Origin: a virus
Virus record (IMG/VR): IMGVR_UViG_3300044445_000018
Location: 1 to 64,000 of that record
Reading direction: 5' to 3' (one strand)
DNA: 64,000 bases
In this document: positions 4,080 through 62,468 of the stretch, in pieces
How positions within the stretch are numbered: the first letter of the stretch is position 1
Layout: the number at the start of each line of letters is the position of its first letter
Notes under the pieces: model-generated
Database searches by the model: none
What the model was told of the DNA's origin: nothing
Seen by the model: the letters and a program-made list of their open reading frames with translations, nothing else
Position numbers and translations under genes: made by a program

Positions 4080-4185
4080 GTCCACTCCGACGACTTTTGC
4101 GTCTTTAGGTATGGATTGGATGTTTGGTAAGGTCATGAACGTTTTTGACACTGTGACACCGTGGGTCAAGTGAAGTTAACTGCAC

Positions 4186-5010
4186 TCAGCGGGTCGGCCC
4201 GGCGAAGATGCTGCCTTCTGTCGTGAGCGGAGTGTAGACCTCGGGGCCCTTCGCGCGGGGCTTGCTGACTGGGCTGCTCTGGCGGTAACTGCCTTCCTTG
4301 GAGCCCGCGACCTTGGTGACGCCGAAGTGCTCGTGGAGGAAGTTGATCTGCCGGCTGCTCTCGACGGCCTTCTTGCAGTAGTTGGTGCGGACATACGTGA
4401 TGGCGTCAGGCTCCCCGAACTCGGACACGAGGGCTGCGAGGAAGGTGCCGGTGCGGCCATGACCGCCGATGCAGCCGCAGTGGACTTTGAGCCCCTTGTC
4501 CAGTTGCTCGCGGGTCCACTTGATCAGCTTCTTGAACTCGGCTGCGTCGCTGGGCGCGTCCATGTCGGTGATCTTGAACAGGAGTTCGGCACCCTTCTTC
4601 CAGGGCCAGTGCTTCTGTGTGAAGCGCATGCCGCTGTCGAAGCCGATGTACACGTCTGCGTCTTTCACGGACGGGGAGCAGCAGGAGCCGCCGAAAATCT
4701 GAAGGTCGCTGTTGGGGATCGCGAGCGCGGGGTGCGTCTCGTAACAGCGGAGGCTGGTAGTGCTGACCGACGACGACTTATGGCTACCCCACCGGCTGTC
4801 GCTGTCGAGGAAGTCACGGACGCTTGACCCGCCCTGGTTAGGACTGGTGCTGCCGAACTTCTTGGCCTCGGTCTCCTTGCTGAACAGGCGGTCGGTGAAG
4901 CCCTCGCTCACGTCCCCGCCGTAGGTGGCGGTCTTGGGGTAGCTCACGCTGCCACCGCGAATGGTGGCGCGGTCGCCGTGGATGGTGTCATTGAGATTTT
5001 TGCGAGCCAT
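4186..5010 (-). CDS. Cys-based (CX5R) dual-specificity/tyrosine phosphatase-fold protein
   Basis: P-loop HCGCIGGHGRTG, then YVRTNYCKKAVESSRQINFL (KAP/Cdc14-like arrangement). SD GGAGGG. Paralogue of 6203..6802. Confidence 0.65.
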   Translation of the reverse strand: MARKNLNDTIHGDRATIRGGSVSYPKTATYGGDVSEGFTDRLFSKETEAKKFGSTSPNQGGSSVRDFLDSDSRWGSHKSSSVSTTSLRCYETHPALAIPNSDLQIFGGSCCSPSVKDADVYIGFDSGMRFTQKHWPWKKGAELLFKITDMDAPSDAAEFKKLIKWTREQLDKGLKVHCGCIGGHGRTGTFLAALVSEFGEPDAITYVRTNYCKKAVESSRQINFLHEHFGVTKVAGSKEGSYRQSSPVSKPRAKGPEVYTPLTTEGSIFAGPTR

Positions 5011-5034
5011 GATAGTGCCCTCCGTGGCTGATGG

Positions 5035-6066
5035 TTACGCTGCGCGCAGGATTTTCTTGACGTGGAAGCCGGGGTAGATTTCGAGATGCGTCTTGGCGAA
5101 CTCTTCGGCTTCTGCCTTGGCTTTGGCCTCGGCAATGGCTTCTTGCTCGGCGGCCTTCTTTGCAGCGGCCTGGGCCGCGATAGCCGCTTGCTTCTCGGCT
5201 TCTGCCGCGTGCTCGGGGACGCCGTATTTCTCGGCCTGCATGAGCTTGTCGCTCGGGTACATCTTGACTGAGCCAAGTTGTTCGACGGTGTACCAGCACA
5301 CATGTCGCGGAAGATCGTACTTGTCGATCAGCCGTTTCATAAGCGATTCGAGTTGATCATCCACGAAGGGGTTGAGCTTCTTGTCGTAAATGACGGCTGT
5401 CGGGATTTGACCGGAACGCTGAATGTCGAGAAGACGGATCAGCTTGTCCCCGTTGTACATCCCGTACAGATGACCCTTGTTGAAGATCGGGCCGTTGTTG
5501 TGGGAGAGGGTCCAGATGGTGTCAAGCATCATCTCGGCACTGAATGTGCCGGTCACGAAGTTGACGAGGCAGTCGGTGACTTTGCCCCACGCCTTGCCGC
5601 CGTAGCCGCCGGGCCACGAGCAGTTGTAGAACATCCACTGCACGCACTTCGTCAGGTTGCCGATGGTCGTATTGGGTGGGGAGTTCTTCAGGTTCTCGTG
5701 GATGCCGTGCTCGCCCTTGCTGTTCTTCATGAAGTTCGCCATGGGAGCGCCAAACTTCGCCTTGATCTCATCGAACTTGTCGCTGAGGTTCTTGCAGTGG
5801 CGGGCCTCGCGAACGCAGATGATCAGCAGATAGTAGAAGGCGCGAGCAGACTTCTCGGTCATCTGTGCGTGGTAGTTCTTCACGAACTCCAGTTCCTCGG
5901 GAGGCAGGGGCTCCAGGGGATCGAAGTTCTGGGAGATCAGCGCCATGCCATGGTTCATGCCGTAGAACCACAGGGCCTCGTTCTCGGGGATCACGTTCTT
6001 GTTGGTCACGCTCTCCGTGTACAGGGCCATGCGGTGGACCACGTCAGCCGCTGGAATGGCCGACAT
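5035..6066 (-). CDS. hypothetical protein with C-terminal Ala/Glu/Lys-rich helix (343 aa)
   Basis: Long ORF. ATG 6066 (MSAIPAADV) chosen because the region upstream reads like off-frame Arg/Pro-rich sequence. No motif recognised. Confidence 0.5.
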   Translation of the reverse strand: MSAIPAADVVHRMALYTESVTNKNVIPENEALWFYGMNHGMALISQNFDPLEPLPPEELEFVKNYHAQMTEKSARAFYYLLIICVREARHCKNLSDKFDEIKAKFGAPMANFMKNSKGEHGIHENLKNSPPNTTIGNLTKCVQWMFYNCSWPGGYGGKAWGKVTDCLVNFVTGTFSAEMMLDTIWTLSHNNGPIFNKGHLYGMYNGDKLIRLLDIQRSGQIPTAVIYDKKLNPFVDDQLESLMKRLIDKYDLPRHVCWYTVEQLGSVKMYPSDKLMQAEKYGVPEHAAEAEKQAAIAAQAAAKKAAEQEAIAEAKAKAEAEEFAKTHLEIYPGFHVKKILRAA

Positions 6067-6171
6067 GTCCCGATGGGTGGTGAACACTCTGGATAGATGG
6101 TGCCGGAGAGTGTCTGTGGGGTCCGTAATGGGCACAGGAAGCCCCCTTTGGGGTTGAGGGGTGGAACGGTG

Positions 6172-6199
6172 AGTATGGCACAAAGGCCCCGTGGTGGAA
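6172..6199 (-). promoter_or_regulatory. possible sigma70-like promoter TTCCAC-16-CATACT
   Basis: Lies in the 136-nt gap upstream of 5035..6066. TGTGCCATACT resembles the early-promoter -10 regions. Confidence 0.35.
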
Positions 6200-6202
6200 G
6201 GT

Positions 6203-6802
6203 TTATTGCGGCTTGAAGTTCGTGTTGAACGAGCGGGCCACGTCGCCGAAGAACCGCCGGGTCTTGTGCCGCCACGCCCGCGCATGGATCAGGTGTGTGA
6301 TGGGCTTGATGTCGAAGTCGTTGACATAGGCCAACTGGTTCTCCGTCTCGACCGCATGGCTGTAGTAGTTCTTGCGGACGAACTGCACGGGGTCGGGGAT
6401 GCCCGCGCACTTGGCCATGATCGCGAGGAACAGGCCGGTGCGACCCATGCCACCCATACAGCCGACATACACGTCACGGCCGCCGAACGCCGCGTCGAAG
6501 GCGGTCAGCACAGCCGAGGCGACGAGGTCGTATTGCTCGGCGGTGGGGACTTGGAAGTCCACGATGGGAACGACGAGATCGGCGTGCTCCGGGACACGCT
6601 CCTGGCGGACACAGACGCCGAAGGTGTGAGGGTTGCCCTTGGGGTAGCCGTCGAAGGGACCCCCCGTGATGTGGACCTTCTGGTAAGCACCTGCGAAGCC
6701 GAATGACAGGGCGAGTACCCCGTTGGCGCGGGGGAAAGTGACCATCTCGGAGGCGATGTCACGCGAGCGGGGGGAACGAGCTTTGGCCATAGGTGCCCTC
6801 AT
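6203..6802 (-). CDS. Cys-based (CX5R) phosphatase-fold protein, paralogue of 4186..5010
   Basis: P-loop VGCMGGMGRTG, then FVRKNYYSHAVETENQLAYV. SD GAGGG. Confidence 0.65.
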   Translation of the reverse strand: MRAPMAKARSPRSRDIASEMVTFPRANGVLALSFGFAGAYQKVHITGGPFDGYPKGNPHTFGVCVRQERVPEHADLVVPIVDFQVPTAEQYDLVASAVLTAFDAAFGGRDVYVGCMGGMGRTGLFLAIMAKCAGIPDPVQFVRKNYYSHAVETENQLAYVNDFDIKPITHLIHARAWRHKTRRFFGDVARSFNTNFKPQ

Positions 6803-6820
6803 TGGCTGGGTGGAGAATGA

Positions 6821-6848
6821 ATTGTAGGGGATGGACCGGTCTTGTCCA
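6821..6848 (-). promoter_or_regulatory. sigma70-like promoter TGGACA-16-TACAAT
   Basis: Intergenic, upstream of 6203..6802. Confidence 0.5.
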
Positions 6849-6852
6849 ATGG

Positions 6853-7011
6853 CTACATCTGCTTCTGAAACACCGCGAGCAGGTTCAGCAGAGTGTTCTT
6901 CTGCTCGTTTCGGTCATGATCGAAGGGTAAGCTTTCGAGCACGTCGATCAGCGCCAGCACAGCGGCTTCGAGCAACAGATCGCGAGTTTCTTTGGGAACG
7001 TCGAACGGCAT
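6853..7011 (-). CDS. hypothetical small protein (52 aa)
   Basis: ATG 7011 preceded by GGGAGGG. The track start at 7047 lies inside the palindrome. Confidence 0.45.
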   Translation of the reverse strand: MPFDVPKETRDLLLEAAVLALIDVLESLPFDHDRNEQKNTLLNLLAVFQKQM

Positions 7012-7031
7012 TGCAGCGCCCTCCCTGGCTT

Positions 7032-7047
7032 GTGCAATTAATGTCAA
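7032..7047. promoter_or_regulatory. junction palindrome GTGCAATTAATGTCAA
   Basis: Contains the TGA stop of 7044..7244. 20 nt upstream of ATG 7011, with the SD in between. Confidence 0.85.
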
Positions 7048-7244
7048 ATCAGGTCGATGGACTTCACCTTGTTCCCATCGACCCGCAGGACGAACTCATC
7101 GAACCGCCGGTTGCCCAACGGATGCGTGAGATTGGCGGCCCGGCGTGCCATCCGTGCGAGACGGGCCGACACGTTGCCGCCGATCCCCAGGCGCTTGGCC
7201 TGGGTGATGGCTTGATCGGAGATGTCGAAGCCGTGGGCTTCCAT
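7044..7244 (-). CDS. hypothetical small protein (66 aa)
   Basis: TGATG overlap with the stop of 7244..7519. Confidence 0.45.
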   Translation of the reverse strand: MEAHGFDISDQAITQAKRLGIGGNVSARLARMARRAANLTHPLGNRRFDEFVLRVDGNKVKSIDLI

Positions 7245-7519
7245 CACACTTTCTCCCGCAGACACTCACCCCGCAGGATGCGGATGCTACGCGGAGCCGA
7301 CAGAGCGACACGGACAGTCGCGGACGGGGGCATGTCCCCGGCCGACACGAACACGTCGTCCATGATCTCGACAGCGTGTTCGTCGGTCACGGTGTGGAGC
7401 TTGCCGGTTCCGTCGTCGCGCAGGACGAACTCCATGTCGGCAACGATCTGTTGCACGACGAAACGGCGCTCACCCGCGACGAAGTCTTCGCCTTCACGCA
7501 GCGTCAATACCAGGGCCAT
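7244..7519 (-). CDS. CsrA/RsmA-like protein with an internal insertion of about 40 aa
   Basis: MALVLTLREGEDFVAGE resembles CsrA MLILTRRVGETLMIGD. TVRVALSAPRSIRILRGE resembles VRIGVNAPKEVSVHREE. ATG 7519 is 6 nt after GGAG. Confidence 0.4.
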   Translation of the reverse strand: MALVLTLREGEDFVAGERRFVVQQIVADMEFVLRDDGTGKLHTVTDEHAVEIMDDVFVSAGDMPPSATVRVALSAPRSIRILRGECLREKV

Positions 7520-7557
7520 GACAGTCTCCACACCGTTTCTTACTTCTATCTATCTGA

Positions 7558-9768: not shown

Positions 9769-9894
9769 TTATTTCTTCTGGAAGTCTACCGGGCGCCGAG
9801 ACTTCGGGTCCTGGCTGAGCACCTTGGCGCCCTTCGATTGCTTCGGCTTCGCCGCCGTCTTCGGGGTCGGTTTCGGAAGGACGTGCGTCGTCAT
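9769..9894 (-). CDS. small Lys/Pro-rich protein (41 aa), not in ORF track
   Basis: MTTHVLPKPTPKTAAKPKQSKGAKVLSQDPKSRRPVDFQKK. TGATG overlap with the stop of 9894..10412. Strongly GC-rich third positions. Confidence 0.45.
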   Translation of the reverse strand: MTTHVLPKPTPKTAAKPKQSKGAKVLSQDPKSRRPVDFQKK

Positions 9895-10412
9895 CACGCG
9901 ATAGCCTTTTTCTGGTCGAGCCGCCGGGTGTAGCAGCCCTGGAACTGCGCACGAACGAGCATGTTCTGTGCAGTTGATTTCACTTTGGCGCGGTCGTGCT
10001 TGTAGTCAAGGAGGTCTCCCATGTCCTCGATCTCCGTGTTCACGAGCATGGCCACGAGCACCGCCATGTTGTCCACGTCGGCGAGGTAGCCTTCCTCCAC
10101 GAGCACGAGGATGAACTGCGCACAGCAGTAGAAGCCCTGGACAGGATCACTGGCGCCAACGTCGCGTAAGATCGAGACGGCGAGCCCGTCGATCCGCTTG
10201 GCCACGAGTACCATCCGTTCTTGCGGCAGGGTCGTAATAACAGCCTCGACGGCCTTGTTCAGCTTGTCCACGATATCGGGCCGAAATTGGTAGCCCTTGG
10301 TGTGAGCTTGATCGTGCATCAGGATCATCATGTGCGCGGGCAGGCACTGCTCCGTCACTGACAAGTCCGCCAGGGCGATCTGCTCCTTGTGGGTGAAATT
10401 CACGACGGTCAT
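9894..10412 (-). CDS. hypothetical protein (172 aa)
   Basis: ATG 10412 (MTVVNFTHKEQ). High GC3 from this point onward. Confidence 0.55.
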   Translation of the reverse strand: MTVVNFTHKEQIALADLSVTEQCLPAHMMILMHDQAHTKGYQFRPDIVDKLNKAVEAVITTLPQERMVLVAKRIDGLAVSILRDVGASDPVQGFYCCAQFILVLVEEGYLADVDNMAVLVAMLVNTEIEDMGDLLDYKHDRAKVKSTAQNMLVRAQFQGCYTRRLDQKKAIA

Positions 10413-13210: not shown

Positions 13211-14161
13211 TCACGCCACTCCCTTCAGGCTGTCGAGATGATCCTTGGTCGGGGCCACGGCCATCTTCTTCGGGATCGTGACCATGCTGGTCTTCTTGAC
13301 CAGGGCCGGCATCGTGGGGGTCTCGCCTTGTGCAATTAATTGCAGAGCCGCCCCGACGACGTCGTCAATGGTGCGCTGCTTCTCGATGCACTGTTCCCCG
13401 ATCAGGTCGAGGGCCTTCATCGTCTTGCCTTCGATACGGAGCCACATGCTGCGCTGGCCGCCGTGATCGAACACCATGTAGCCGAAGGGCAGCGTGTCCC
13501 CGAACTTGGTGAACATCTCGTTGAGGAGCTTCGACAGCCCATCGACCGTCTTGATCTCCTTGGCGGCCTCCTTGAACTTGTCCTGGGAGGTCTTGTCGGG
13601 CAGCGCCTTGGCGGTCTGATTGATCAGCTTCTGCCACTCCTTGTCGTCGGAGATGGCGAACGCCTCCTGCATCACGTCAGGCCCGTAGACCTTCTCCAGG
13701 GACTGCACGAGGTCCATGAACGACTGCGGGTCCATCTTACCGTGGATCGCATTCATTCTGACGATCTGGAATTTCTCCGCGTCGTCATCGAAGTCTTCGG
13801 CCATGACGATGGTCACGGGGACTTCATCGAAGTCGAGGTACAGGGCGGCCTTCAGGCGGTGGTGGCCTCCGACGACACGGAAGCGGAGCGACTTGCTCGC
13901 GGCAGCCTTGGCGAAGGTCTCGGGGTCCTGCCCCGCCTTAGTCCAGACCTTCTCACACTCGGAGCGGTCGAGAGGACGAATGAGGATCGGGTCCGTCAAG
14001 CCCGTCTCTTCGATGTTACGACAGAGGTTGTTGAACTCTCGGTCGGACATCTTGTTGGGGTTCAGCGTATTCTCTTCGAGGAGAGCCGGTGCCAGGAAGC
14101 AACGGATGGTCTCCTTGGTTTTCTCAAAAGCGCCCACACCGGCCTCCGTGTCGCGGGACAA
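13211..14161 (-). CDS. ParB-like nuclease (ParB/Srx N-terminal) domain protein
   Basis: Motifs DPILIRPL and RVVGGHHRLKAA. Track start at 14161 is TTG; a GTG at 14137 follows GGAGG. Confidence 0.7.
   Translation of the reverse strand: MSRDTEAGVGAFEKTKETIRCFLAPALLEENTLNPNKMSDREFNNLCRNIEETGLTDPILIRPLDRSECEKVWTKAGQDPETFAKAAASKSLRFRVVGGHHRLKAALYLDFDEVPVTIVMAEDFDDDAEKFQIVRMNAIHGKMDPQSFMDLVQSLEKVYGPDVMQEAFAISDDKEWQKLINQTAKALPDKTSQDKFKEAAKEIKTVDGLSKLLNEMFTKFGDTLPFGYMVFDHGGQRSMWLRIEGKTMKALDLIGEQCIEKQRTIDDVVGAALQLIAQGETPTMPALVKKTSMVTIPKKMAVAPTKDHLDSLKGVA
13330..13345. promoter_or_regulatory. palindrome GTGCAATTAATTGCAG (intragenic)
   Basis: Perfect 14-bp core inside the ParB-like CDS (codes LQLIAQ), 121 nt upstream of the TerS-like start. 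Confidence 0.8.
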
Positions 14162-16834: not shown

Positions 16835-16991
16835 GCGCTTGCCTTTCGGTAGACGCGCCAACCCCCATCGGTCTTGCGCGCAGTCTTGCGGTAGTCGATC
16901 CCCAGATGCGTGATGGCCTGGGTCAGTGTTCCGGGGTACTCGCGGATCGAAACGTACTGATCCGGCTCTCCGGGTGCTATAAGACAGCACA

Positions 16992-17486
16992 TCACGCGAG
17001 GGAAGAACATTGAGCCTCCTGCGTCAAGAAGCGTTTGCGGATACGAGAGCCGGGCACGTTCTTGCTGTTCTGGGACTTCGTGGCCCAGCGCAGGTTGCGA
17101 CGGCGACAGTCCAGGGTGTTCCCGTTGCGATGATCCCCGATGCGGTAAGGTCTCCGAGGGCCTTTCCACCGCGTGAGGATTTCACAGTGCAGGAACAGGT
17201 TCCCGTAGCGAGGACGTCCCGAAGGCAAGAACCCGTCGATCTGAACAGACCGGCGGGCATAGATGCCATCAGGGCGCTCTAGGGCGTTCATCCAGGGCAG
17301 GTACTTGCCTGACCCGTACGTGTGGCACCAGAGGAAGTCTTTGGCCCACACGTAGTCTTGGTAGTCGAGCAGGACGTTGAGGTCCCACCGGTTCGACAGG
17401 CAGATCGCGAAGGTCGCGTCCGGTGCCGGTTCCGTGTCCCACGTCCTGGGATCGAATGGATCAGCCAGTAGCAAGTCTTCGAACAT
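16992..17486 (-). CDS. HNH homing-type endonuclease
   Basis: GDHRNGNTLDCRRRNLRWATKSQNSKN. Free-standing, between the glycosyltransferase and methyltransferase-like genes. Confidence 0.75.
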   Translation of the reverse strand: MFEDLLLADPFDPRTWDTEPAPDATFAICLSNRWDLNVLLDYQDYVWAKDFLWCHTYGSGKYLPWMNALERPDGIYARRSVQIDGFLPSGRPRYGNLFLHCEILTRWKGPRRPYRIGDHRNGNTLDCRRRNLRWATKSQNSKNVPGSRIRKRFLTQEAQCSSLA

Positions 17487-17498
17487 GAGCCGCCCCGA

Positions 17499-17514
17499 GT
17501 GACGTTAATTGCAC
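17499..17514. promoter_or_regulatory. junction palindrome GTGACGTTAATTGCAC
   Basis: Abuts the TGA stop at 17515-17517. 12 nt upstream of the HNH ATG. Confidence 0.85.
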
Positions 17515-18198: not shown

Positions 18199-18213
18199 GG
18201 GGGCTGTCCTCGA

Positions 18214-19442: not shown

Positions 19443-19444
19443 GG

Positions 19445-20395: not shown

Positions 20396-20399
20396 GGGT

Positions 20400-21041
20400 C
20401 TATGCTTCCTTCAGATATTTGACATGATAGGCTTCGGCATACTCGGCTCCGCACTGACTGCCCCACACGCGAGCTTGTGCAATTAAGTTCACTGGTGAGC
20501 GGGGTCCTTCGGTGCGGCTCTCGGTGGTGTAGCAGGCCATCGCCTCGATCTTCTTGTCCATGACCTCCTGTGTCATGGGCAGGTAGAAAGAGGGTTGCCG
20601 CACAATACCGTCCAGAGCGAAGAACTCAAGGACGCGGTCGATCTTGCCGAGATTGATCGGACGCAGGGCAATACCACAGACGTGGTTCAGATGTCGATGG
20701 TCTTGATTAAGATCATCACCCGCCGGGATGATGACTTCATCCGGCTCGAAGTTCTTCAGAGCCCATTCGATCTTGCGCAGCAGATCGTAATAACCGACTT
20801 TTCCTGGCTCTCCTTCGGTAGAGGGGCGTCCTGCCGAGACCTCTACGAAATCGAGTAGCTTCTTGGCTTTGAGGAAGTCGGGATATTCCTGCTGCCAGCC
20901 ATCCTTCTGGCCGTGGAAGTACGCCCTGGTAAAGACGACGAGGACGAGAACGTCGATGCCTTCACGACGACGGGCCTGAATGAGGCCCGCGCATGAGATC
21001 GTCTCGTCGTCTAGGTGGGGGGCGATGATCAGCGTTCTCAT
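20400..21041 (-). CDS. PIG-L/LmbE family N-acetylglucosaminyl deacetylase
   Basis: IIAPHLDDETISCAG motif. ATG 21041 in ATGA overlap, 9 nt after GGAGGA. Confidence 0.75.
   Translation of the reverse strand: MRTLIIAPHLDDETISCAGLIQARRREGIDVLVLVVFTRAYFHGQKDGWQQEYPDFLKAKKLLDFVEVSAGRPSTEGEPGKVGYYDLLRKIEWALKNFEPDEVIIPAGDDLNQDHRHLNHVCGIALRPINLGKIDRVLEFFALDGIVRQPSFYLPMTQEVMDKKIEAMACYTTESRTEGPRSPVNLIAQARVWGSQCGAEYAEAYHVKYLKEA
20477..20492. promoter_or_regulatory. palindrome GTGCAATTAAGTTCAC (intragenic, near 3' end)
   Basis: Inside the deacetylase CDS (codes VNLIAQ), 82 nt upstream of the epimerase ATG. Confidence 0.8.
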
Positions 21042-22991: not shown

Positions 22992-23019
22992 AGTATAACC
23001 CCTAGGGACGTGGTGTGAA
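22992..23019 (-). promoter_or_regulatory. sigma70-like promoter TTCACA-16-TATACT
   Basis: The -35 overlaps the palindrome at 23015..23030. Confidence 0.5.
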
Positions 23020-23030
23020 GTTAATTTCAC
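23015..23030. promoter_or_regulatory. junction palindrome GTGAAGTTAATTTCAC
   Basis: Contains the TGA stop of 23027..23500. Confidence 0.85.
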
Positions 23031-24264: not shown

Positions 24265-24521
24265 GTGCAATTAACTTCACTCGGGTCGAGAATGAAGACT
24301 TGCCCTTCTTGGCCGCCAAGCAGCCAGTCACCGCCTTCGTTTTGAATGGTCTCGCCGGGGTCGGGGCATGGGCCGTCTACTGTGTAACACCCGCTTGCAA
24401 CCCCGACAGGATCAGTTTTCTCGCGGTCTGCTATCCAGGCTTCAGCCTGCGTCAGGGTGGCTGTGTCGGCGACTTGCGTCAGCGTTGTGCCGCGCTCGTA
24501 CTTAATTCTGTAATGCGACAT
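24261..24521 (-). CDS. hypothetical protein (86 aa)
   Basis: ATG 24521. The C-terminal codons SEVNCT are encoded by the palindrome. Confidence 0.45.
   Translation of the reverse strand: MSHYRIKYERGTTLTQVADTATLTQAEAWIADREKTDPVGVASGCYTVDGPCPDPGETIQNEGGDWLLGGQEGQVFILDPSEVNCT
24265..24280. promoter_or_regulatory. junction palindrome GTGCAATTAACTTCAC
   Basis: Covers the last codons of 24261..24521 and is directly followed by ATG 24264. Confidence 0.85.
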
Positions 24522-24813: not shown

Positions 24814-25085
24814 GATCTTTCCCATTCTGCACTTAGTTGCACGCCTTGTGTCTTCTTGAACCATCGGATCATGCGCTCCACGAATGAGCGATAGCGATCC
24901 CCACTCGCTATGTAGCTGCCAGATACGATGATCAGACTGGATGGCTCAGTAGCATTCTTTGCGTTCTCTTCTTCATCGGCGAGATAGCAAGGGCATCTCT
25001 TGCGCTCAACGACAGAAGCTTTGAACCGCATCATCTGGTGAGGCGTGACCCGAGGACATGCGTGTAGTTTGACAAGGTATCCCAT
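24810..25085 (-). CDS. hypothetical protein (91 aa), locally lower GC
   Basis: ATG 25085 is 5 nt after GGAG. Confidence 0.45.
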   Translation of the reverse strand: MGYLVKLHACPRVTPHQMMRFKASVVERKRCPCYLADEEENAKNATEPSSLIIVSGSYIASGDRYRSFVERMIRWFKKTQGVQLSAEWERS

Positions 25086-25105: not shown

Positions 25106-25121
25106 GTGCAATTAGCTTCAC
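25106..25121. promoter_or_regulatory. junction palindrome variant GTGCAATTAGCTTCAC
   Basis: Centre is TTAG. Contains the TGA stop of 25118..25420. 20 nt upstream of ATG 25085. Confidence 0.75.
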
Positions 25122-31752: not shown

Positions 31753-32406
31753 TTATGCGACTTTGAGGAGGGGAGTGCCGTCCACGTTCAGCAAGACCGT
31801 CCCATCGACGTTCTTGAGGACGTTGTCGTTGACCGGCTGCTCGATGGGGGTGTTGGCGGTCTGCATGTAGACCGTCTGGGAGATGGGTCCTTTCCCGCTG
31901 GTGTTGAGCGCCGTCACCCGGAAGCGGTAGGTCGTGCCTTCCGCGAGCCCGGTCACAGTGCAATTAACGTCACTCGTGCTGGCGACGAAGGTCGTCCAGG
32001 GGGACGAGCCGCTGCTGCGCCGGTACTCGACCTTGTATCCGGCCGGGGTGCCGCCGCGCTTCGGGGGCTTCCACGCCAGCGCCACGGACTTCGTGGTGAT
32101 GCTGACGGCACGAAACTCATCGACCGGGCCCGGCATGGGCACGTCGGACGCCACGGTGTCCGTGGTGAAAGCGATGATGGTGGTGGGGGCGAACTTCGCC
32201 TTGGCGAAGACCTTCTGACCGGGGAAGTTCACGGGCAGGTTGGGGAGACGATTGTCGAGGGTGAGCCCGTCTCGCGACGTGGCATCCGGCATCGTCTGGC
32301 CGATGTAGACAAGGACGGGGTTAGCGTCTGTCAGGGTGAGCGTCACGGGAGAAGTCCCGAGATCGACCCACGCACCTGGGATCAGGTTCTTTTTCGCGGT
32401 TGACAT
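31753..32406 (-). CDS. fibronectin type III domain structural protein
   Basis: VSITTKSVALAWKPP...YKVEYRR...TVTGLAEGTTYRFRVTALN. ATG 32406. Confidence 0.6.
   Translation of the reverse strand: MSTAKKNLIPGAWVDLGTSPVTLTLTDANPVLVYIGQTMPDATSRDGLTLDNRLPNLPVNFPGQKVFAKAKFAPTTIIAFTTDTVASDVPMPGPVDEFRAVSITTKSVALAWKPPKRGGTPAGYKVEYRRSSGSSPWTTFVASTSDVNCTVTGLAEGTTYRFRVTALNTSGKGPISQTVYMQTANTPIEQPVNDNVLKNVDGTVLLNVDGTPLLKVA
31958..31973. promoter_or_regulatory. palindrome GTGCAATTAACGTCAC (intragenic)
   Basis: Inside the FN3 CDS (codes SDVNCT), about 220 nt upstream of the fibre gene start. Confidence 0.8.
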
Positions 32407-33859: not shown

Positions 33860-34165
33860 CTAGCGGGGGAATGTGAAGCCCGCAATCAGTGCAGCAGCAA
33901 TGCGACTTCTCTGCGTAGGATCAGCCTCTGCTTTTAGACGCTTCGTCCTGACCTCCTGCAATGTCTCGGTCGGCTCTGCTTCTAATTCGTAACCTAGATA
34001 CTCAAGTACAGTCTCGATGATCGTGATGTCACCGCCGCCGTCTTGCTCGATACGGCGTAGTGTAGACCTGTTGACAGACGTGGCCGATGCAAGCTGTCGT
34101 TGAGACAACCCTTGCTGCATCCGCAGATCGACAATCAACTTGCCCCAGAACATCGGATCGGCCAT
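33860..34165 (-). CDS. XRE-family helix-turn-helix transcriptional regulator (101 aa)
   Basis: QGLSQRQLASATSVNRSTLRRIEQ HTH. ATG 34165 lies 11 nt after the GNAT stop. Confidence 0.75.
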   Translation of the reverse strand: MADPMFWGKLIVDLRMQQGLSQRQLASATSVNRSTLRRIEQDGGGDITIIETVLEYLGYELEAEPTETLQEVRTKRLKAEADPTQRSRIAAALIAGFTFPR

Positions 34166-34625: not shown

Positions 34626-34641
34626 GTGCAATTAATGTCAT
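34626..34641. promoter_or_regulatory. junction palindrome GTGCAATTAATGTCAT
   Basis: 7 nt upstream of the GNAT SD. Confidence 0.85.
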
Positions 34642-37016: not shown

Positions 37017-37032
37017 GTGAAATTAATGTCAT
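37017..37032. promoter_or_regulatory. junction palindrome GTGAAATTAATGTCAT
   Basis: Contains the TGA stop of 37029..37139 and abuts the SD of 36835..37005. Confidence 0.85.
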
Positions 37033-40184: not shown

Positions 40185-40200
40185 GTGCAACTAACTTCAC
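40185..40200. promoter_or_regulatory. palindrome variant GTGCAACTAACTTCAC
   Basis: Centre is CTAA. Intergenic, adjacent to the iteron array. Confidence 0.7.
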
Positions 40201-40861: not shown

Positions 40862-40877
40862 GTGCAATTAACGTCAG
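40862..40877. promoter_or_regulatory. junction palindrome GTGCAATTAACGTCAG
   Basis: Contains the TGA stop of 40874..41128. Its centre is 28 bp from the P2 -35 centre. Confidence 0.85.
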
Positions 40878-42371: not shown

Positions 42372-42387
42372 GTGCAATTAATGTCAG
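42372..42387. promoter_or_regulatory. palindrome GTGCAATTAATGTCAG
   Basis: Its centre is 38 bp from the P6 -35 centre. Confidence 0.85.
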
Positions 42388-42791: not shown

Positions 42792-42807
42792 GTGCAATTA
42801 ATTGCAG
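42792..42807. promoter_or_regulatory. palindrome GTGCAATTAATTGCAG
   Basis: Perfect 14-bp core. Its centre is 28 bp from the P7 -35 centre. Confidence 0.85.
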
Positions 42808-43274: not shown

Positions 43275-43290
43275 GTGCAATTAATGTCAC
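43275..43290. promoter_or_regulatory. palindrome GTGCAATTAATGTCAC
   Basis: Lies in the ORF-free region 43225..43700. Confidence 0.85.
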
Positions 43291-44461: not shown

Positions 44462-44477
44462 GTGAAGTTAACTGCAC
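44462..44477. promoter_or_regulatory. palindrome GTGAAGTTAACTGCAC
   Basis: Between the stop at 44489 and the terminator hairpin. Confidence 0.85.
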
Positions 44478-45157: not shown

Positions 45158-45173
45158 GTGCAATTAACTTCAC
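45158..45173. promoter_or_regulatory. palindrome GTGCAATTAACTTCAC
   Basis: 10 nt after the stop at 45184. Its centre is 28 bp from the P10 -35 centre. Confidence 0.85.
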
Positions 45174-45828: not shown

Positions 45829-45844
45829 GTGCAATTAACTGCAT
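45829..45844. promoter_or_regulatory. palindrome GTGCAATTAACTGCAT
   Basis: 17 nt after the stop of 45862..46260. Confidence 0.8.
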
Positions 45845-48222: not shown

Positions 48223-48238
48223 GTGACGTTAATTGCAC
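48223..48238. promoter_or_regulatory. junction palindrome GTGACGTTAATTGCAC
   Basis: 4 nt after the stop at 48243. Abuts the SD of 47874..48209. Confidence 0.85.
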
Positions 48239-51132: not shown

Positions 51133-51148
51133 GTGCAGTTAATTGCAG
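51133..51148. promoter_or_regulatory. junction palindrome GTGCAGTTAATTGCAG
   Basis: 4 nt after the stop at 51153. Abuts the SD AAGGAG. Confidence 0.85.
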
Positions 51149-53426: not shown

Positions 53427-53633
53427 TTAGTCTTCCTTCCACACGAAGTTGACCGTATCACCGTCCGTCGCTGTGTGCCGCTGCTGCCGGTCAACGAGGC
53501 GGTACACGCCGGGCTTCATGTTGTGGGCTTTGGCATCATCGTATGCGCCGATGGCGAACGGGGGCAGGCTGAACTCCATCGCCCGGCTCTGTCCGTGCCG
53601 TGGCCCGCCTTGGTACGTGATGATGATCTGCAT
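53427..53633 (-). CDS. hypothetical protein (68 aa)
   Basis: ATG 6 nt after AAGGAG. Confidence 0.5.
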   Translation of the reverse strand: MQIIITYQGGPRHGQSRAMEFSLPPFAIGAYDDAKAHNMKPGVYRLVDRQQRHTATDGDTVNFVWKED

Positions 53634-53645: not shown

Positions 53646-53661
53646 GTGCAGTTAATGTCAC
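53646..53661. promoter_or_regulatory. junction palindrome GTGCAGTTAATGTCAC
   Basis: Contains the TGA stop of 53658..53858 and abuts the next SD. Confidence 0.85.
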
Positions 53662-53858
53662 AACTGGCCGATCCCGATCAGAACCAGCATGATCACCAGG
53701 GCCAGGGTGATGGCCCCTAGATGGATGTGCCAGATGAGGGCTAGGGGCTCCGTAGAAGGCCGTGGAGCGGCTTGAGGGGGTGTTGAGTAGGGATTGGTCC
53801 CTGTTACCTCCCTGAACGCCTTGTTGAACTCTGGACGTAGCTCTACCGGGTCGGCCAC
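53658..53858 (-). CDS. small protein with C-terminal TM segment (66 aa)
   Basis: GTG start after GAGGA. LGAITLALVIMLVLIGIG. Confidence 0.45.
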   Translation of the reverse strand: MADPVELRPEFNKAFREVTGTNPYSTPPQAAPRPSTEPLALIWHIHLGAITLALVIMLVLIGIGQL

Positions 53859-54277: not shown

Positions 54278-55576
54278 TCAACCCAGATTGCCGTCCTCGG
54301 GAAGCTCGACGTTCACGACCACATTCGGGAACGCCGCCTCGATAGCGGCGAAGGCTTCCTCGACACCCGCCGCCTTGATCTGCTCGGCGAGGGACGGAAG
54401 CCCCTGGGCCTTGCCGCTGGCCTTGGCGTTGCCCGCGAGGAAGTCGAGACAGATGAAGTCGAGCGCCACGGTATCGACGGCGGTGCCGCTGTCCTTCTTC
54501 GCCTTCTCGATGGCGAGTTCGATGTTCTTCTTCTGGTCCTCGTGGACCTTGAAGGTCTTCGTGGTGACGGTGACGGCGGCGCCTTCCTGCACCTGGGCCG
54601 TGGTCTCGCCCTGGCTGGCCGCCGCCTTCTTGGCCGCCTTGACGCTGTCGATCAGTTGCAGGACCGTCTGGCTCTTGGCCAGTTCGACCCACTGATCCAC
54701 GTTCTCCGGGGTGATGACGTCCGCGATCTCCTTGAGCTTGGTCCAGCCGACGTCCTTGACGCTGTCCCAGGCGATCTTGTTCTCGACCAGGGCGTTGTAG
54801 ATGCCGACGTAGTACAGGGCCGTGCGGTACTGGAGGCCGTGGACCTGCTCGATGTACTCGCGGAAGGACGCGTAGGGGGCGTACCAGCCGTTGGACTGGA
54901 TCACCGCGAGGACGCCGCCGAGACGGAAGTAGGTGAGTTCAGTCTGGTCGTTCAGGATGGCCGCGAGTTCGAGCGCGTCCTTCTCCTTCAGGTTCTCGAC
55001 GTGGTGGGCGAAGTCCGCGATGGCGTCCTTGCCGGTCAGGTCCGCGACGACACCCGCCTTGGCCTTAGCCGGGGTGGTCTTGCCGCCCTTGGGCGCGGTG
55101 GCCGGCGCAGCGGTGGCAGCAGCGGGAGCAGCCGGGACTTCGGCAGCCACGGTCTCCGCAGCCGCTTCCGTGGTGGCCTCGGCCTCACCTTCGCCGCCGA
55201 ACATCTTCTTGATGATGGCTCGCTTCTCGGCGACCTTCATCTTGGCGAAGCCCTCGGGCATGTCCGCCTCGTAGCCGGCCTCCTTGATCATCTTGTCGAT
55301 CTCGGCGGACGACATCTTGTCCACGTCCACTTCCTGGGCCTCCTCGTTGACGGCCTCGGTGGTCGTCTCCGTGGCAGCCTCGGCGGCAGCGGTCTCGGCC
55401 GGGGTGGGTGTGGGGGTCTCGACCACGGGCGCGGTGGGCGCAGCGGCCTTGGTGCCGAACTTGATGCCGCCGGTCTTGGCGGGGGCAGCAGCCGGGGCCG
55501 GGGTGGCGGCAGCAGCGGGGACTTCGGCGGGCTTGGTCTTGCCCTTCAACAGCATAAGCGACGGGGAAGCGGTCAT
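54278..55576 (-). CDS. hypothetical protein: Ala/Pro/Glu-rich N-half, helical DNA-binding-like C-half (432 aa)
   Basis: ATG 6 nt after AAGGAGGA. No specific motif recognised. Confidence 0.5.
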   Translation of the reverse strand: MTASPSLMLLKGKTKPAEVPAAAATPAPAAAPAKTGGIKFGTKAAAPTAPVVETPTPTPAETAAAEAATETTTEAVNEEAQEVDVDKMSSAEIDKMIKEAGYEADMPEGFAKMKVAEKRAIIKKMFGGEGEAEATTEAAAETVAAEVPAAPAAATAAPATAPKGGKTTPAKAKAGVVADLTGKDAIADFAHHVENLKEKDALELAAILNDQTELTYFRLGGVLAVIQSNGWYAPYASFREYIEQVHGLQYRTALYYVGIYNALVENKIAWDSVKDVGWTKLKEIADVITPENVDQWVELAKSQTVLQLIDSVKAAKKAAASQGETTAQVQEGAAVTVTTKTFKVHEDQKKNIELAIEKAKKDSGTAVDTVALDFICLDFLAGNAKASGKAQGLPSLAEQIKAAGVEEAFAAIEAAFPNVVVNVELPEDGNLG

Positions 55577-55652: not shown

Positions 55653-56189
55653 TTAGTTTGAAATTAACTGCATTTCCCCGACCACTTCGTTCTGGATCGT
55701 GGTCAGGTTTGTCAGGAGCCCCTTGTAGGCGAGGCCCATGACGGCCAGTCCGTAAGCGTCTGCGATGTCGTTGGAGGCGGGCTCGAAGCCCCACCGCTTG
55801 TAGACTTGCAGCATGACTTGGTCTTTGTCCGAGTTTCCCTTGCCTGTCACGAACCTTTTCAGTTCGCTGGCGCGGGGGTCGGCCCAGGAGAGGCCGTCGA
55901 GTTTGAGACAAAAGCGCAGAAGCCCTCCGAGTTCCACGAGGGGGATCACGGAGGACGCGTTCTTCATGTTCAGGCTGTAGCCCTCGATCACGATGACGTC
56001 GGGTTGCCACTCCGTAATGCGCTCCATGATCTCCGATACGATCCACTGAGCCCGGTCGATCCCCGCGAGCTTCTTGGGGACGAGCGTGCCTGCAAACAGC
56101 GTCTGAGGGACCTTGATCTTGTCGGCCGCGTAGAGATGCACGAGACCCGTGGCCTTAGTAGACGGGTCGATGCCGAGGGCCGTAGTCAT
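55653..56189 (-). CDS. ruvC: RuvC-like Holliday junction resolvase
   Basis: ALGIDPSTKATG, VIVIEGYS, VTGKGNSDKDQV and NDIADAYGLA. ATGA overlap at 56186-56189. Confidence 0.75.
   Translation of the reverse strand: MTTALGIDPSTKATGLVHLYAADKIKVPQTLFAGTLVPKKLAGIDRAQWIVSEIMERITEWQPDVIVIEGYSLNMKNASSVIPLVELGGLLRFCLKLDGLSWADPRASELKRFVTGKGNSDKDQVMLQVYKRWGFEPASNDIADAYGLAVMGLAYKGLLTNLTTIQNEVVGEMQLISN
55658..55673. promoter_or_regulatory. palindrome TTGAAATTAACTGCAT
   Basis: Covers the last codons (MQLISN) of RuvC, 2 nt before its TAA stop. Confidence 0.75.
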
Positions 56190-57104: not shown

Positions 57105-57923
57105 TCAGGCTCCCGATTTCTTGCTCAGAGCCAGCAACGTGCTCTGCGTGCCGATAAGCTGCGTGTGCAGCGACTGCATCTGTGTTTGCAGGGTATAGAT
57201 GTCTTTCGCCATCCCGTCGATCATATTCGTCAACTCGCCGAAGACATGTGCCGGAACAAACTCCATCGGAAGATCAGTGACTTTGCCGACAAGATCGTTC
57301 AGGGACATGGCAACGTTCCAGAGCATCATCCCGTTGTCAGCAGCCTGATTGATCATCCCCGGATTGACGCCCGAGACAGCCGGAACGAAGGGCTTCCACA
57401 CTTTGTCCTTGTGCGCTGGGAAGGGCGCGTAATTAAGCATCTCAGGCTCTTTCGGAAAGAACGTGAAAGGCTTTTCGTATGCCGGCTTGGAGTAGACGCC
57501 CGACATCTTCTCTTTGAGCTTTTCCATGTCGATGGAGACGGGCTTGTCGTATTCCGACATGGGGGTAATGTGGGGTTCGTCTTTTGGCAGCAGGTAGTCT
57601 TCGAGATAGAACGGCTTCTTCTCGGCGCTGTGCCCTTTGAGCAGGACGTGCTCGATGTCGGCTTGGATGCCTGCCTGCAACTTGTTGATCACGAACGCTT
57701 GCAACTGCTTGGTGCTGGAGTCGGTGGCTTGGTCGTGGAAGCTCTCCCCCAGCTTCATCTTACCCAGGTTTTCACTGTTGGCGTTGCTCGGCTTGTTGGG
57801 GTCGAACGGCCACCACGGATTGTCCGCCGCGTTGAGTTCAGGAAGCTCAAGCACCGCGCCGGGAATGAGCTTGGGGTAGCTCGTGTGTGCAGCTAATTTC
57901 ACCACGGTCTTGAGCCACCGCAC
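57105..57923 (-). CDS. hypothetical protein (272 aa)
   Basis: GTG 57923 is 4 nt after GGGAGGG. Confidence 0.5.
   Translation of the reverse strand: MRWLKTVVKLAAHTSYPKLIPGAVLELPELNAADNPWWPFDPNKPSNANSENLGKMKLGESFHDQATDSSTKQLQAFVINKLQAGIQADIEHVLLKGHSAEKKPFYLEDYLLPKDEPHITPMSEYDKPVSIDMEKLKEKMSGVYSKPAYEKPFTFFPKEPEMLNYAPFPAHKDKVWKPFVPAVSGVNPGMINQAADNGMMLWNVAMSLNDLVGKVTDLPMEFVPAHVFGELTNMIDGMAKDIYTLQTQMQSLHTQLIGTQSTLLALSKKSGA
57887..57902. promoter_or_regulatory. palindrome variant GTGCAGCTAATTTCAC (intragenic)
   Basis: Centre is CTAA. Covers codons 8-12 of 57105..57923. Confidence 0.7.
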
Positions 57924-60116: not shown

Positions 60117-60132
60117 GTGACATTAATTGCAG
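60117..60132. promoter_or_regulatory. junction palindrome GTGACATTAATTGCAG
   Basis: 11 nt after the stop at 60144 and 17 nt before ATG 60099. Confidence 0.85.
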
Positions 60133-62024: not shown

Positions 62025-62034
62025 CGTGTTTCCT

Positions 62035-62066
62035 TACAGCAGAAGGGGACCGGTCGCCCGATCCCC
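62035..62066 (-). terminator. hairpin / possible terminator upstream of the helicase gene
   Basis: Minus strand GGGGATCGG-GCGA-CCGGTCCCC followed by TTCTGCTGT. Confidence 0.5.
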
Positions 62067-62077
62067 CGTAGGTATGC

Positions 62078-62200
62078 GCCTAGCCTGCTTGCGACAGGTT
62101 GTTCAGATGCCTCACGGCGTCTTGGTAGCGGTAGGTCGCAGCAGGGGAGACGTTCCCGAGAAGCGAGCGGGCAATATGCGGGCACGCCCGCCTAGCCTGC
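62078..62200. repeat. two exact GCCTAGCCTGC copies
   Basis: Copies at 62078 and 62190. The second lies inside CDS 62080..62439; the first straddles its stop codon at 62080-62082. Confidence 0.8.
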
Positions 62201-62439
62201 TTATCGACCGGGGTCTCGGTGACGGCGACCTTGTCGGTCTTCGGCTTGCGAGGAGCGCGAGGCTTCTTGGGTTGGGCCTTCACGAGATCGACCTGACCGT
62301 CAGTCTCGCCGAGTACGACATGGGCCGGGGCCACCTTCTTGGCACGGGGCTTGGGCAGCTTCTGCATCTCGGGGTCGGTCGGGGTGCGGGCGGTGGCAGT
62401 CTTGCCGAGCTTCTTGAGCTTGTCAGCCATCTCAGTCAT
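62080..62439 (-). CDS. hypothetical basic protein (119 aa)
   Basis: ATG after GAGGAAG. Confidence 0.5.
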   Translation of the reverse strand: MTEMADKLKKLGKTATARTPTDPEMQKLPKPRAKKVAPAHVVLGETDGQVDLVKAQPKKPRAPRKPKTDKVAVTETPVDKQARRACPHIARSLLGNVSPAATYRYQDAVRHLNNLSQAG

Positions 62440-62452
62440 GTCGCTTCCTCAA

Positions 62453-62468
62453 GTGACGTTAATTGCAC
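62453..62468. promoter_or_regulatory. junction palindrome GTGACGTTAATTGCAC
   Basis: 13 nt upstream of ATG 62439. Confidence 0.85.

Follow-up and report, generated by a model that had tools for sequence, protein, structure and literature searches.

An evenly spaced array of palindromic DNA sites, partly phased to promoters, in a 64-kb phage sequence and its temperate relatives

Why would a phage genome carry the same short palindrome 26 times, mostly between genes that are nearly all read in one direction? The question is raised by IMG/VR virus record IMGVR_UViG_3300044445_000018, of which positions 1 to 64,000 (hereafter the window, part of a contig of ~101 kb) were analysed. An earlier reading of the bare letters, here called the original prediction, had described a 14-16 bp repeat of the form TG-N3-TTAA-N3-CA, proposed that a dimeric protein binds it as DNA, compared it with the stoperators of mycobacteriophage L5, and named an XRE-type helix-turn-helix (HTH) protein as the binder. 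The window encodes a family A DNA polymerase, a large terminase, a PPDK-like enzyme, two dual-specificity phosphatases, a RecA/UvsX protein, RuvC-like and Cas4-like nucleases, an SF2 helicase and a cluster of sugar-modifying enzymes. Codon-position G+C together with a simple gene caller places essentially all genes of the window on the minus strand.

The repeat itself stands out clearly from background. The exact form TGNNNTTAANNNCA has 23 matches in the window, compared with a mean of 0.17 and a maximum of 2 in dinucleotide-preserving shuffles, so that the 26-copy palindrome passes the shuffled control proposed for it. As the window, with 60% G+C throughout, holds only 47 TTAA tetranucleotides, half of them fall within palindrome sites. 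With a position weight matrix (PWM) derived from the 26 sites, none of these scores below 20.3 bits; next come two places at 9969 (17.4 bits) and 24828 (16.2 bits), and the remainder score at most 11 bits. This score gap separates the sites from background, and we therefore count 26 firm sites and two probable extra ones that the original prediction did not contain. Its division into 23 exact TTAA centres and three one-base variants is upheld: the variants (CTAA at 25107, TTAG at 40186 and 57888, in transcribed orientation) have arms typical of the family and are genuine sites. Five further sites lie just beyond the window on the same 101-kb contig. Site coordinates given here are 1 base above those of the original prediction, whose starts include the flanking G.

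Read in transcribed orientation, the motif is TG[C/A][A/C][A/G]-TTAA-[T/C][T/G][T/G]CA, two-fold symmetric over 14 bp, or 16 bp with its flanks (GTGCAATTAATTGCAC). Its half-sites are those already described (TGCAATT, TGCAGTT, TGACATT, TGACGTT, TGAAGTT and TGAAATT), with one TGAAC to be added. A flank of G...C had been ascribed to most sites; the downstream C is present at 25 of 26 sites, the upstream G at only 15 of 26.

A megablast search with 20 kb of the window finds no near-identical phage in GenBank, and relatives were located via protein comparisons. The closest is Rhodobacter phage RcZahn (55-59% protein identity), whose gene order is syntenic with that of the window, followed by Rhizobium phages TM16 and Y1_11, Stenotrophomonas phages DLP5, DLP3 and Summit, and Vibrio phages of the SSP002/VHS1-like group. 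Another syntenic relative lies in the middle of a chromosome, that of Hyphomicrobium sp. ghe19 (4.6 Mb). DLP5 is temperate and is kept as a 'phagemid', an episomal prophage, and DLP3 forms stable lysogens (PMC5834331, PMC7326821). The temperate lifestyle implied by the comparison with stoperators is thus found among the relatives, and because DLP5 persists as a phagemid, DLP3 as lysogens and one relative within a chromosome, a genome-wide role of the sites in silencing or maintenance is biologically plausible.

The relatives carry the palindrome at similar abundance. RcZahn has 21 sites where 0.17 are expected, DLP5 has ~35, nearly all TGCAAT[C/T][A/G]ATTGCA, Vibrio phage PG28 has 33 of the form TGCA[A/G]TTAA[T/C]TGCA, and the Hyphomicrobium prophage has 8 sites in 21 kb. 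At least 119 IMG/VR stretches contain the exact 15-mer, and contigs of ~90-100 kb often have it more than once; the frame TGCAA-N4-TTGCA is enriched in nearly all loci retrieved via the RecA protein or via a ParB-N protein, to which we return below. This frame is the family consensus: the arms are conserved, while the 4-bp centre is specific to the lineage (TTAA, TCAA/TTGA, TCAG/CTGA, TCGA, GCGC, TCGC, CAAA, TATG, TTTA or ACGT). In a few lineages an arm base differs too (TGCACT..AGTGCA or TGAAAT..ATTTCA), and the outer flank is lineage-specific and symmetric, G...C in the window and T...A in PG28 and RcZahn. Hosts of the motif-bearing phages span Alpha- and Gammaproteobacteria, and their genomes range from 46 to 64% G+C. 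Given this spread of hosts and base composition, a phage-encoded reader that co-evolves with its site is far more likely than a host factor.

The original prediction had suggested looking for the motif at orthologous junctions of related genomes, and it is found there. Positions shared by the window and RcZahn are the junction gp59/gp60 (60118 in the window, 54597 in RcZahn, also 3189 in PG28), the end of the RuvC-like gene before gp66, the junction gp11/gp12 (4171 and 9730, also in the Hyphomicrobium relative), a place upstream of gp113, the 3' end of gp5 (9969 and 4175) and the junction portal/protease. These sites are kept despite ~50% protein identity. The arrangement of site 45159 with its promoter likewise has an orthologous counterpart at 82723 in RcZahn.

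Conservation extends into coding sequence. The ParB-N gene bears a site at the same codon column in the window (CTG-CAA-TTA-ATT-GCA) and in DLP5 (GTG-CAA-TCA-ATT-GCA), and ~16 of 30 homologous genes have one there. In each case the centre is the dominant one of that phage, namely CAAA in L159, TCGA in L167, TCAA in DLP5, L157 and L165, and TTAA in the window and L151, and the encoded residue shifts with it (QLIA, QSIA, QQIA, QTIA). An epimerase gene also has a site at a shared codon column (RcZahn, DLP5), and a third recurrent in-gene site lies near the 3' end of the O/DnaD-like initiator gene. The recurrence of sites at orthologous junctions and codon columns, with the encoded residue altering to fit, argues that selection acts on the DNA word itself.

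In many relatives (loci L008-L010, L014-L017, L019-L022 and L027), the word TGCAA[C/T]TGATTGC[A/C] is kept inside the RuvC-like gene, ~1.2-1.4 kb upstream of gp66. Here GCA-ATT-GAT-TGC encodes AIDC, probably the motif with the catalytic Asp; the fit between protein motif and site may be fortuitous, or the site may constrain the choice of codons.

Besides being conserved, the sites are evenly spaced. In the complete genomes of PG28 and DLP5, tested as wholes, the coefficient of variation (CV) of the intervals is 0.37 and 0.49, respectively, compared with ~0.96 for random placement, and none of 20,000 simulations is as regular (P<5e-5); the largest gaps are also shorter than under random placement. 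In the window and in RcZahn, the CV outside the early-promoter cluster, an exclusion chosen post hoc, is 0.46-0.52 (P 0.0005-0.003; random ~0.93-0.96). The average density is one site per ~2-3 kb genome-wide. About half of the sites of DLP5 and PG28 (15 of 33 in PG28) are in coding regions, where they fill long genes such as the tape measure gene. Hence the statement that the repeat lies almost always at gene junctions describes this phage and not its relatives, and with about half of the DLP5 and PG28 sites intragenic, junction placement is a preference rather than a rule.

Within the window, this preference is pronounced. Of the 26 sites, 21 are non-coding over at least 11 of their 14 nt, against 11.9% of random positions (P=1.4e-15), in agreement with what had been claimed for this genome. 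The TGA arm doubles as the stop codon of the upstream gene at six sites, as had been described: five annotated genes (stops at 7044, 23027, 25118, 37029 and 40874) and an open reading frame (ORF) at 53658. Nine sites end 13-22 nt ahead of the next start codon, and terminator-like hairpins follow two. The set distances upstream of early-region -35 boxes also hold, with gaps of 17-18 nt in three cases and 28 nt in one. The individual sites, with no strand assigned, are as follows.

4171..4184, palindrome site, 2 nt past the stop of the PTP-like gene 4186-5010; CTTGACC follows at 1 nt
7033..7046, palindrome site whose TGA arm terminates 7044-7244; the small ORF 6853-7011 has its ATG 22 nt further on
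9969..9982, probable extra site TGAAATCAACTGCA with TCAA centre, within the 3' end of the gp5-like gene 9894-10412
13331..13344, perfect palindrome within the 3' part of the ParB-N gene; CTG CAA TTA ATT GCA encodes LQLIA
17500..17513, palindrome site between 17515-18198, whose stop lies 2 nt ahead, and 16992-17486, whose ATG follows 14 nt on
20478..20491, palindrome site within the 3' end of the deacetylase-like gene 20400-21041
23016..23029, palindrome site whose TGA arm terminates 23027-23500
24266..24279, palindrome site within a long stretch of non-coding sequence
24828..24841, probable extra site TGCAACTAAGTGCA, immediately upstream of 24529-24825; CTAA centres are known in relatives
25107..25120, centre-variant site TGAAGCTAATTGCA; TGA arm is the stop of 25118-25420
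31959..31972, palindrome site within the gene 31753-32406
34627..34640, palindrome site, 5 nt downstream of the promoter TTGACA-17-TAAGTC; the GNAT-XRE operon has its GTG 22 nt further on
37018..37031, palindrome site whose TGA arm terminates 37029-37139; the next ATG comes 13 nt after its end
40186..40199, centre-variant site TGAAGTTAGTTGCA, non-coding, adjoining AGCAGGCTAGG repeats
40863..40876, palindrome site; TGA arm is the stop of 40874-41128; then GGTGTTTTT and, at 17-18 nt, the -35 (CTTGCC) of an early-type promoter
42373..42386, palindrome site, 28 nt upstream of the early-promoter -35 TTTACA
42793..42806, perfect palindrome, 18 nt upstream of the early-promoter -35 TGGACA
43276..43289, palindrome site, non-coding, in the early region
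44463..44476, palindrome site, 13 nt past the stop of 44489-45052; an intrinsic-terminator-like hairpin follows directly
45159..45172, palindrome site; TTTACA-16-TATCGT, from which 44489-45052 is transcribed, lies 18 nt downstream
45830..45843, palindrome site, 19 nt past the stop of 45862-46260; then a GC hairpin
48224..48237, palindrome site that takes up a gap of 33 nt, with an ATG 15 nt beyond its end
51134..51147, palindrome site that takes up a gap of 32 nt, with a GTG 14 nt beyond its end
53647..53660, palindrome site whose TGA arm terminates the ORF 53658-53858; 53427-53633 has its ATG 14 nt further on
55659..55672, palindrome site where the RuvC-like gene has its 3' end; the gp66 promoter, TTGTCA-16-TATCAT, lies 9 nt downstream
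57888..57901, centre-variant site TGAAATTAGCTGCA, on the edge of 57105-57923 (5' side)
60118..60131, palindrome site at the junction of the gp59-like and gp60-like genes; an ATG follows 19 nt after its end
62454..62467, palindrome site; ends 15 nt before the ATG of 62080-62439

Is the palindrome read as DNA or as RNA? The two arms of the window sites match at 82 positions, compared with 94 in permuted arm pairs, and only 2 of the 26 sites are perfect palindromes where 5.3 are expected from arm frequencies (P ~0.001-0.007). The 11 sites that were folded share no RNA fold (z-scores from -2.5 to +1.4, mostly ~0), and Rfam has no match anywhere in the window. The asymmetric centres TCAA and TTGA are used both ways relative to transcription (6:5 in L011, 4:3 in L021, 3:3 in L022 and ~20:10 in DLP5). 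Given non-compensatory arms, inconsistent folds, the empty Rfam search and the use of both orientations, the palindrome is best described as a two-fold symmetric site in double-stranded DNA for a putative dimeric binder, the reading that had originally been favoured over an RNA hairpin.

An mRNA hairpin or linear motif, acting in processing, stability or translational control of the gene 13-22 nt downstream, would be in keeping with several features. A start codon follows 8-24 nt after nine sites of the window and ~60 of the 318 family sites, which adjoin the Shine-Dalgarno sequence; all genes are on a single strand, and RcZahn shows a bias of TCAA over TTGA of 12-13:1 in sense orientation. 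However, most window sites have non-complementary arms that are less alike than chance, the predicted folds vary by site with z near 0, and there is no Rfam family. The orientation bias, considered as a clue to RNA or promoter function, is strong in RcZahn and absent from the other relatives, and many sites lie upstream of promoters or past terminators, outside the relevant transcript. We regard an RNA element as the least probable of the explanations considered here.

As a side observation on the arms, perfect palindromes seem to be avoided across the 26 window sites, the consensus arm (TGCAATT) typically being paired with a variant arm; DLP5 and PG28, unlike the window, have mostly perfect arms.

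Among 318 non-redundant family sites, a -35-like hexamer starts 7-8 nt past the site 17 times in sense and never in antisense orientation, and at 17-20 nt the counts are 12 and 1. Within 42 nt they are 55 and 16, many of the hexamers being accompanied by near-consensus -10 boxes. In RcZahn, 5-6 of 7 TTAA-centred sites precede promoters, compared with 0 of 14 TCAA-centred ones, and the single TTAA-centred site of DLP5 precedes a promoter as well. A unit of site, 8-9 nt and promoter leading into gp66 is kept in the window (55659), RcZahn (58281), DLP5 (47683), PG28 (6177) and several contigs. Sites just downstream of a promoter, such as 34627, are sporadic, and sites show no systematic peak over the transcription start. 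A generic scan for promoters and terminators came out near background, adding only two promoters and one terminator, and most sites lack a promoter nearby.

In the early region (39990-45503, minus strand), nine small units share the leader GGAAAAGGAGTT-N4-6-ATG below promoters of the TTTACA/CTACGTT type. About half of these nine promoters have a preceding site, 17-18 nt from the -35 (28 nt once), and always upstream of it; the palindrome is thus not a core sigma70 element. In its spacing or invariant bases, the word does not appear to fit the motifs for sigma54 (-24/-12), IHF, Fis, CtrA and FNR/CRP.

What has been observed, then, is a conserved and co-evolving array of palindromic sites in double-stranded DNA, spaced evenly and in part phased to sigma70-type promoters. 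From it we infer that a phage-encoded dimer binds the array and acts on transcription genome-wide, with a probability that we place at roughly 0.55. Under this reading, each site would be read by a dimer of a phage-encoded DNA-binding protein belonging to the conserved core of a large clade of temperate siphoviruses with 80-100 kb genomes transcribed from one strand (RcZahn / Delepquintavirus / SSP002-like). Selection would hold one site every ~2-3 kb over the whole genome, placed where possible in short gaps, often with TGA reused as a stop codon or just before a Shine-Dalgarno sequence, and otherwise within genes. In the promoter subset, the bound dimer would sit at a fixed, helix-phased distance, with the end of the site 7-9 or 17-18 nt ahead of the -35 and its centre near -51 or -61. 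Elsewhere in the co-directional operons it might serve as a roadblock or insulator against read-through. The outcome would be silencing or timing, in the fashion of stoperators or of KorB.

Which protein might do this? The core common to RcZahn, DLP5 and PG28 includes few possible DNA binders. The proteins to be weighed are the following.

33860..34165, minus strand, XRE-type HTH protein, the candidate of the original prediction; judged an unlikely family-wide binder
13211..14137, minus strand, ParB/KorB/Noc-like (ParB-N) protein, homolog of RcZahn gp1 and candidate binder; carries site 13331
54278..55576, minus strand, gp66-like core protein, a positional candidate (possibly autoregulated) with a conserved operator-promoter upstream

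Had the XRE protein been an immunity-type repressor and the repeats its stoperators, as for gp71 of L5, one could point to a true HTH_3 protein, 51% identical to RcZahn gp135, to a temperate family, and to an operon in the window with a sigma70-like promoter and site 34627 directly after it. The assignment does not hold up across the family. Homologs occur only in RcZahn and two Rhizobium phages, all three alphaproteobacterial, and a peptide-pattern method finds no close relatives in IMG/VR; DLP5 and PG28 (33-36 sites each) and many contigs have the motif at equal density with no XRE homolog. The copy in front of the XRE operon is present in the window and has no counterpart ahead of the GNAT-XRE operon of RcZahn. 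The arms are conserved over host classes, unlike fast-diverging immunity specificities. Moreover, the protein weakly matches antitoxins of the HipB/Y4mF type and forms, with a GNAT acetyltransferase, a two-gene unit (33860-34605, minus strand) behind its own promoter, which may be a toxin-antitoxin-like module and not a master regulator of the phage. We therefore reject XRE as the family-wide reader and consider an XRE-stoperator system very unlikely; at most, the protein is a local user of one site.

Two other HTH proteins were set aside. DLP05_060, annotated as 'transcriptional regulator' (MerR-type HTH) and considered as the conserved neighbour of a site that is itself conserved, is not homologous to gp59 of the window and RcZahn; its gene lies between the SF2 helicase and gp59-like genes of DLP5 (L147/L148, 43342-43743) and PG28 (L184, 2417-2824), occurs only in these two gammaproteobacterial phages, and is absent from the window and RcZahn. 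The gp51-like HTH protein is an O/DnaD-like replication initiator encoded outside the window and is more likely tied to the AGCAGGCTAGG repeats.

The best candidates for the putative binder are the ParB-N protein (13211-14137) and gp66 (54278-55576). The former belongs to a PHROG 'ParB-like' family, with a borderline match to Pfam ParB_N, and its gene is in the core set, adjoins the terminase genes and holds the conserved in-gene site. An AlphaFold2 (AF2) model of it, with a predicted local distance difference test (pLDDT) score of 81, gives Noc (7nfu, the top match), KorB (8qa9, 8qa8) and ParB as best Foldseek matches over 200-246 columns (E 6e-6 to 1e-4); the aligned part comprises the N-domain and the central domain, whereas sulfiredoxin-type matches cover only ~100 columns. 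The N-terminus of gp66 is rich in Ala, Pro and Lys, and the protein has a helical domain predicted with confidence; one of its homologs carries the tag of the HC2 histone-H1-like family.

Several observations weigh against a dimer acting on transcription genome-wide, or against either candidate. Only ~10% of sites are coupled to promoters, and the strong -35 and -10 boxes beside them are silent on activation versus repression. Many sites of DLP5 and PG28 are in mid-gene, and partition, condensation, packaging or marking would explain even spacing equally well; for the window and RcZahn, that spacing depends on the post hoc exclusion mentioned above. Box II of the ParB-N protein reads IVGGHHRFDAA compared with IVAGERRWRAA in ParB, that is GGHHR and not GERR. 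PG28 has the same palindrome as the window consensus, yet the putative DNA-binding stretch of its ParB-N protein is very divergent; conversely, Arthrobacter phage Kitkat has a similar putative DNA-binding region and a genome with no comparable dispersed palindrome. Because of Kitkat and PG28, we keep the ParB-N protein at the level of a candidate. For gp66, there is no match in Pfam, NCBIfam, PDB sequences or PDB folds, and no recognisable DNA-binding fold.

The main rival is a structural array, in which the sites would be loading or nucleation sites of the ParB/Noc/KorB-like protein for centromere-like partition of the episomal prophage, compaction, membrane tethering or a packaging mark, and the junction bias would show merely which places tolerate a 14-bp word. 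Even spacing, long gaps filled by intragenic sites, the coding location of about half of the DLP5 and PG28 sites and the maintenance of DLP5 as a phagemid all suit such an array. So does a core protein with a ParB/Noc/KorB fold, encoded beside the terminase genes and bearing a conserved site in its own gene, much as parS lies within spo0J; Noc and ParB themselves use dispersed palindromes of 14-16 bp. The strand-specific, fixed-distance coupling to -35 boxes would be left unexplained, unless the protein does both jobs as KorB does. Furthermore, the ParB-N protein lacks GERR, its putative DNA-binding region does not track the motif in PG28 and Kitkat, and partition requires only one or a few sites. 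We see the structural array as possible, though doubtful.

Palindromes also suit dimeric nucleases and modification enzymes, and the sites might be targets of a nickase or endonuclease (a 'ParB-like nuclease', or RuvC or HNH proteins), of DNA modification, or of recombination as hot spots for module exchange. The even genome-wide distribution, coding regions included, would fit, as would small early gene cassettes flanked by sites and a genome that encodes RuvC-like, Cas4-like and HNH proteins together with many sugar- and phosphate-handling enzymes. DLP5 DNA is reported to be heavily modified, resisting 32 of 36 restriction enzymes (PMC5834331, PMC7326821), but this indicates base-wide modification and not modification of ~35 sites. 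Placement in phase with promoters would be unexpected, and conservation ends at 16 bp, with no extended homology for recombination. Enzyme targets are thus an improbable explanation.

The preferred reading of a dimer acting on transcription can be further judged by comparison with known systems, since in its logic the array resembles L5 stoperators, the O_B operators of KorB, Noc/ParB sites and the phiC31 CIRs. Like the stoperators bound by gp71 of L5 and other Cluster A phages, which number two to three dozen copies through the long co-directional operons of a temperate phage, the sites occur in high number (26-28 per 64 kb, all among co-directional genes). Both sets lie mostly in short intergenic gaps or overlap start and stop codons, their sequence co-varies with the phage lineage, and the proposed logic, genome-wide silencing via a block to transcription, is shared. 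L5 stoperators, however, are 13-bp asymmetric sites, bound by a monomer and oriented, while the array consists of 14-16 bp palindromes used both ways (as the ratios given above for L011, L021 and DLP5 illustrate). The array further differs in arms that are conserved across phages of different bacterial classes and in its many intragenic sites in relatives. A gp71-like repressor was not identified in this analysis. The comparison with L5 consequently stands as a functional analogy of many sites in one-directional operons; by definition the sites are not stoperators, being palindromic and orientation-free.

KorB, a global repressor of the ParB family on plasmid RK2, is a paradigm of a protein in which partition and silencing coexist. 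Its 12 O_B operators are, like the array, dispersed palindromes of the 13-bp class on a replicon of ~60-100 kb, some just upstream of promoters and others far from any, and KorB combines a ParB N-domain with an HTH and has a structural homolog in the phage core. The O_B sequence (TTTAGCSGCTAAA) differs from the array site, the CTP-binding motif GERR is replaced by GGHHR in the phage protein, and the array has ~3 times more sites, evenly spaced; the PG28 and Kitkat comparisons oppose a simple link.

The Noc-binding sites (NBS) and the parS sites of ParB are 14-16 bp palindromes as well, and the known ones are read by dimers of the ParB family. NBS are scattered in dozens over the chromosome and parS lies inside the parB/spo0J gene, as a conserved site here lies inside the ParB-N gene (~16 of 30 homologs). 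Noc and ParB serve division-site control and segregation in cells, show no phasing to promoters, and have unrelated site sequences. Although the phage encodes a ParB-family protein along with such a palindrome, the canonical CTP-binding box II (GERRxRA) is not conserved in that protein and its binding to the site is putative, so the array cannot yet be filed as a ParB-parS system.

The CIRs of the Streptomyces phage phiC31 are scattered inverted repeats of ~17 bp, bound by repressor and often near early promoters or terminators; they differ in sequence and belong to another phage lineage, and we know of no even spacing or intragenic conservation among them. The early region also recalls the T4-type PeSL cassettes, in which small genes are split by a repeated stop, palindrome and then terminator or promoter. 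PeSLs are real stem-loops with promoters in hyperplastic regions and are thought to drive cassette shuffling, whereas the palindrome of the array is mostly non-pairing, genome-wide and also intragenic.

A bolder picture, possible though doubtful, is that the sites, one per ~2.5 kb, load a non-canonical phage protein, ParB/KorB-like or of unrecognised fold; this protein would coat or loop the genome, or slide along it, over all of its 80-100 kb. In lysogeny, whether episomal or integrated, it might silence the entire one-directional transcription programme, or else it might organise the DNA and mark it for packaging and partition. If true, chromosome-style silencing or organisation of a whole genome would be built into a virus and conserved, with co-evolving centres, over phages of Alpha- and Gammaproteobacteria.

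The motif appears to be undescribed. No description was found in the papers on RcZahn, DLP5 and DLP3 or by literature searches with sequence strings and phage names; an earlier mention in the genome paper of Vibrio phage SIO-2 is possible. As a shared regulatory or architectural signature, it joins temperate siphoviruses of ~80-100 kb so far treated as unrelated singletons or genera, namely RcZahn, Rhizobium TM16/Y1_11, the Delepquintavirus phages DLP3/DLP5, the SSP002/VHS1-like Vibrio phages, and metagenomic and prophage relatives. It could thereby be used as a metagenomic marker of clade members. One 14-bp word in ~35 copies per genome, with lineage-specific centres, also offers a handle on a global regulator or organiser, and opens the question of how a 100-kb genome in a single orientation is silenced or timed. 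With its even spacing and with codons altered to retain the site, the array clearly exemplifies selection on DNA words that run through coding sequence, and the co-evolving centres form a natural series for the evolution of DNA-binding specificity. Several phages of the clade, with Stenotrophomonas or aquaculture Vibrio as targets, are under study for therapy, where control of lysogeny matters.

A few further features of the window deserve mention. The GGTGTTTTT tract, resembling an UP element, lies between palindrome and -35 at 45152, 44165, 43225 and 40856, and the same tract occurs in RcZahn. A direct repeat, AGCAGGCTAGG(CG), is present on the transcribed strand only, at 62201, 62089, 45344, 44425, 43589, 43563, 40299 and 40226 (minus strand), with degenerate copies around 40.2-40.3, 43.5-43.6 and 44.4 kb. 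Its copies cluster ~20-26 nt apart near 62.1 kb and in non-coding parts of the early region, which gives them an iteron-like look; they may be an origin, or the array bound by the O/DnaD-like initiator, whose gene lies just beyond the window. In RcZahn, a related word (AAAGCAGGCGC) occurs 8-9 times. A second short word, CTAGGGGTT, stands beside sites 62454 and 23016 (at 62478 and 23005, minus strand), with TATACT after one copy.

Among the neighbouring genes, 26215-29298 and 29373-31739 (minus strand) hold a DUF1800/DUF1501 gene pair and a 788-aa protein with He_PIG Ig domains, in a region with no RcZahn homologs; both the pair and the He_PIG protein are unusual phage cargo. The segments 4186-9702 and 15374-22386 (minus strand) encode core proteins, namely the PPDK-like enzyme, two phosphatases of the DSP/PTP type, a deacetylase, an epimerase, an aminotransferase, a methyltransferase and a glycosyltransferase. 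A hypermodification of the DNA may be their product; the DNA of the related DLP5, cut by 4 of 36 enzymes, is reported to be heavily modified. Finally, 7244-7519 (minus strand) has a weak CsrA-like match (E 5e-5, under the Pfam cut-off) and 22413-22781 (minus strand) encodes a protein with a clear RapZ C-terminal domain, both families being RNA-binding in bacteria.

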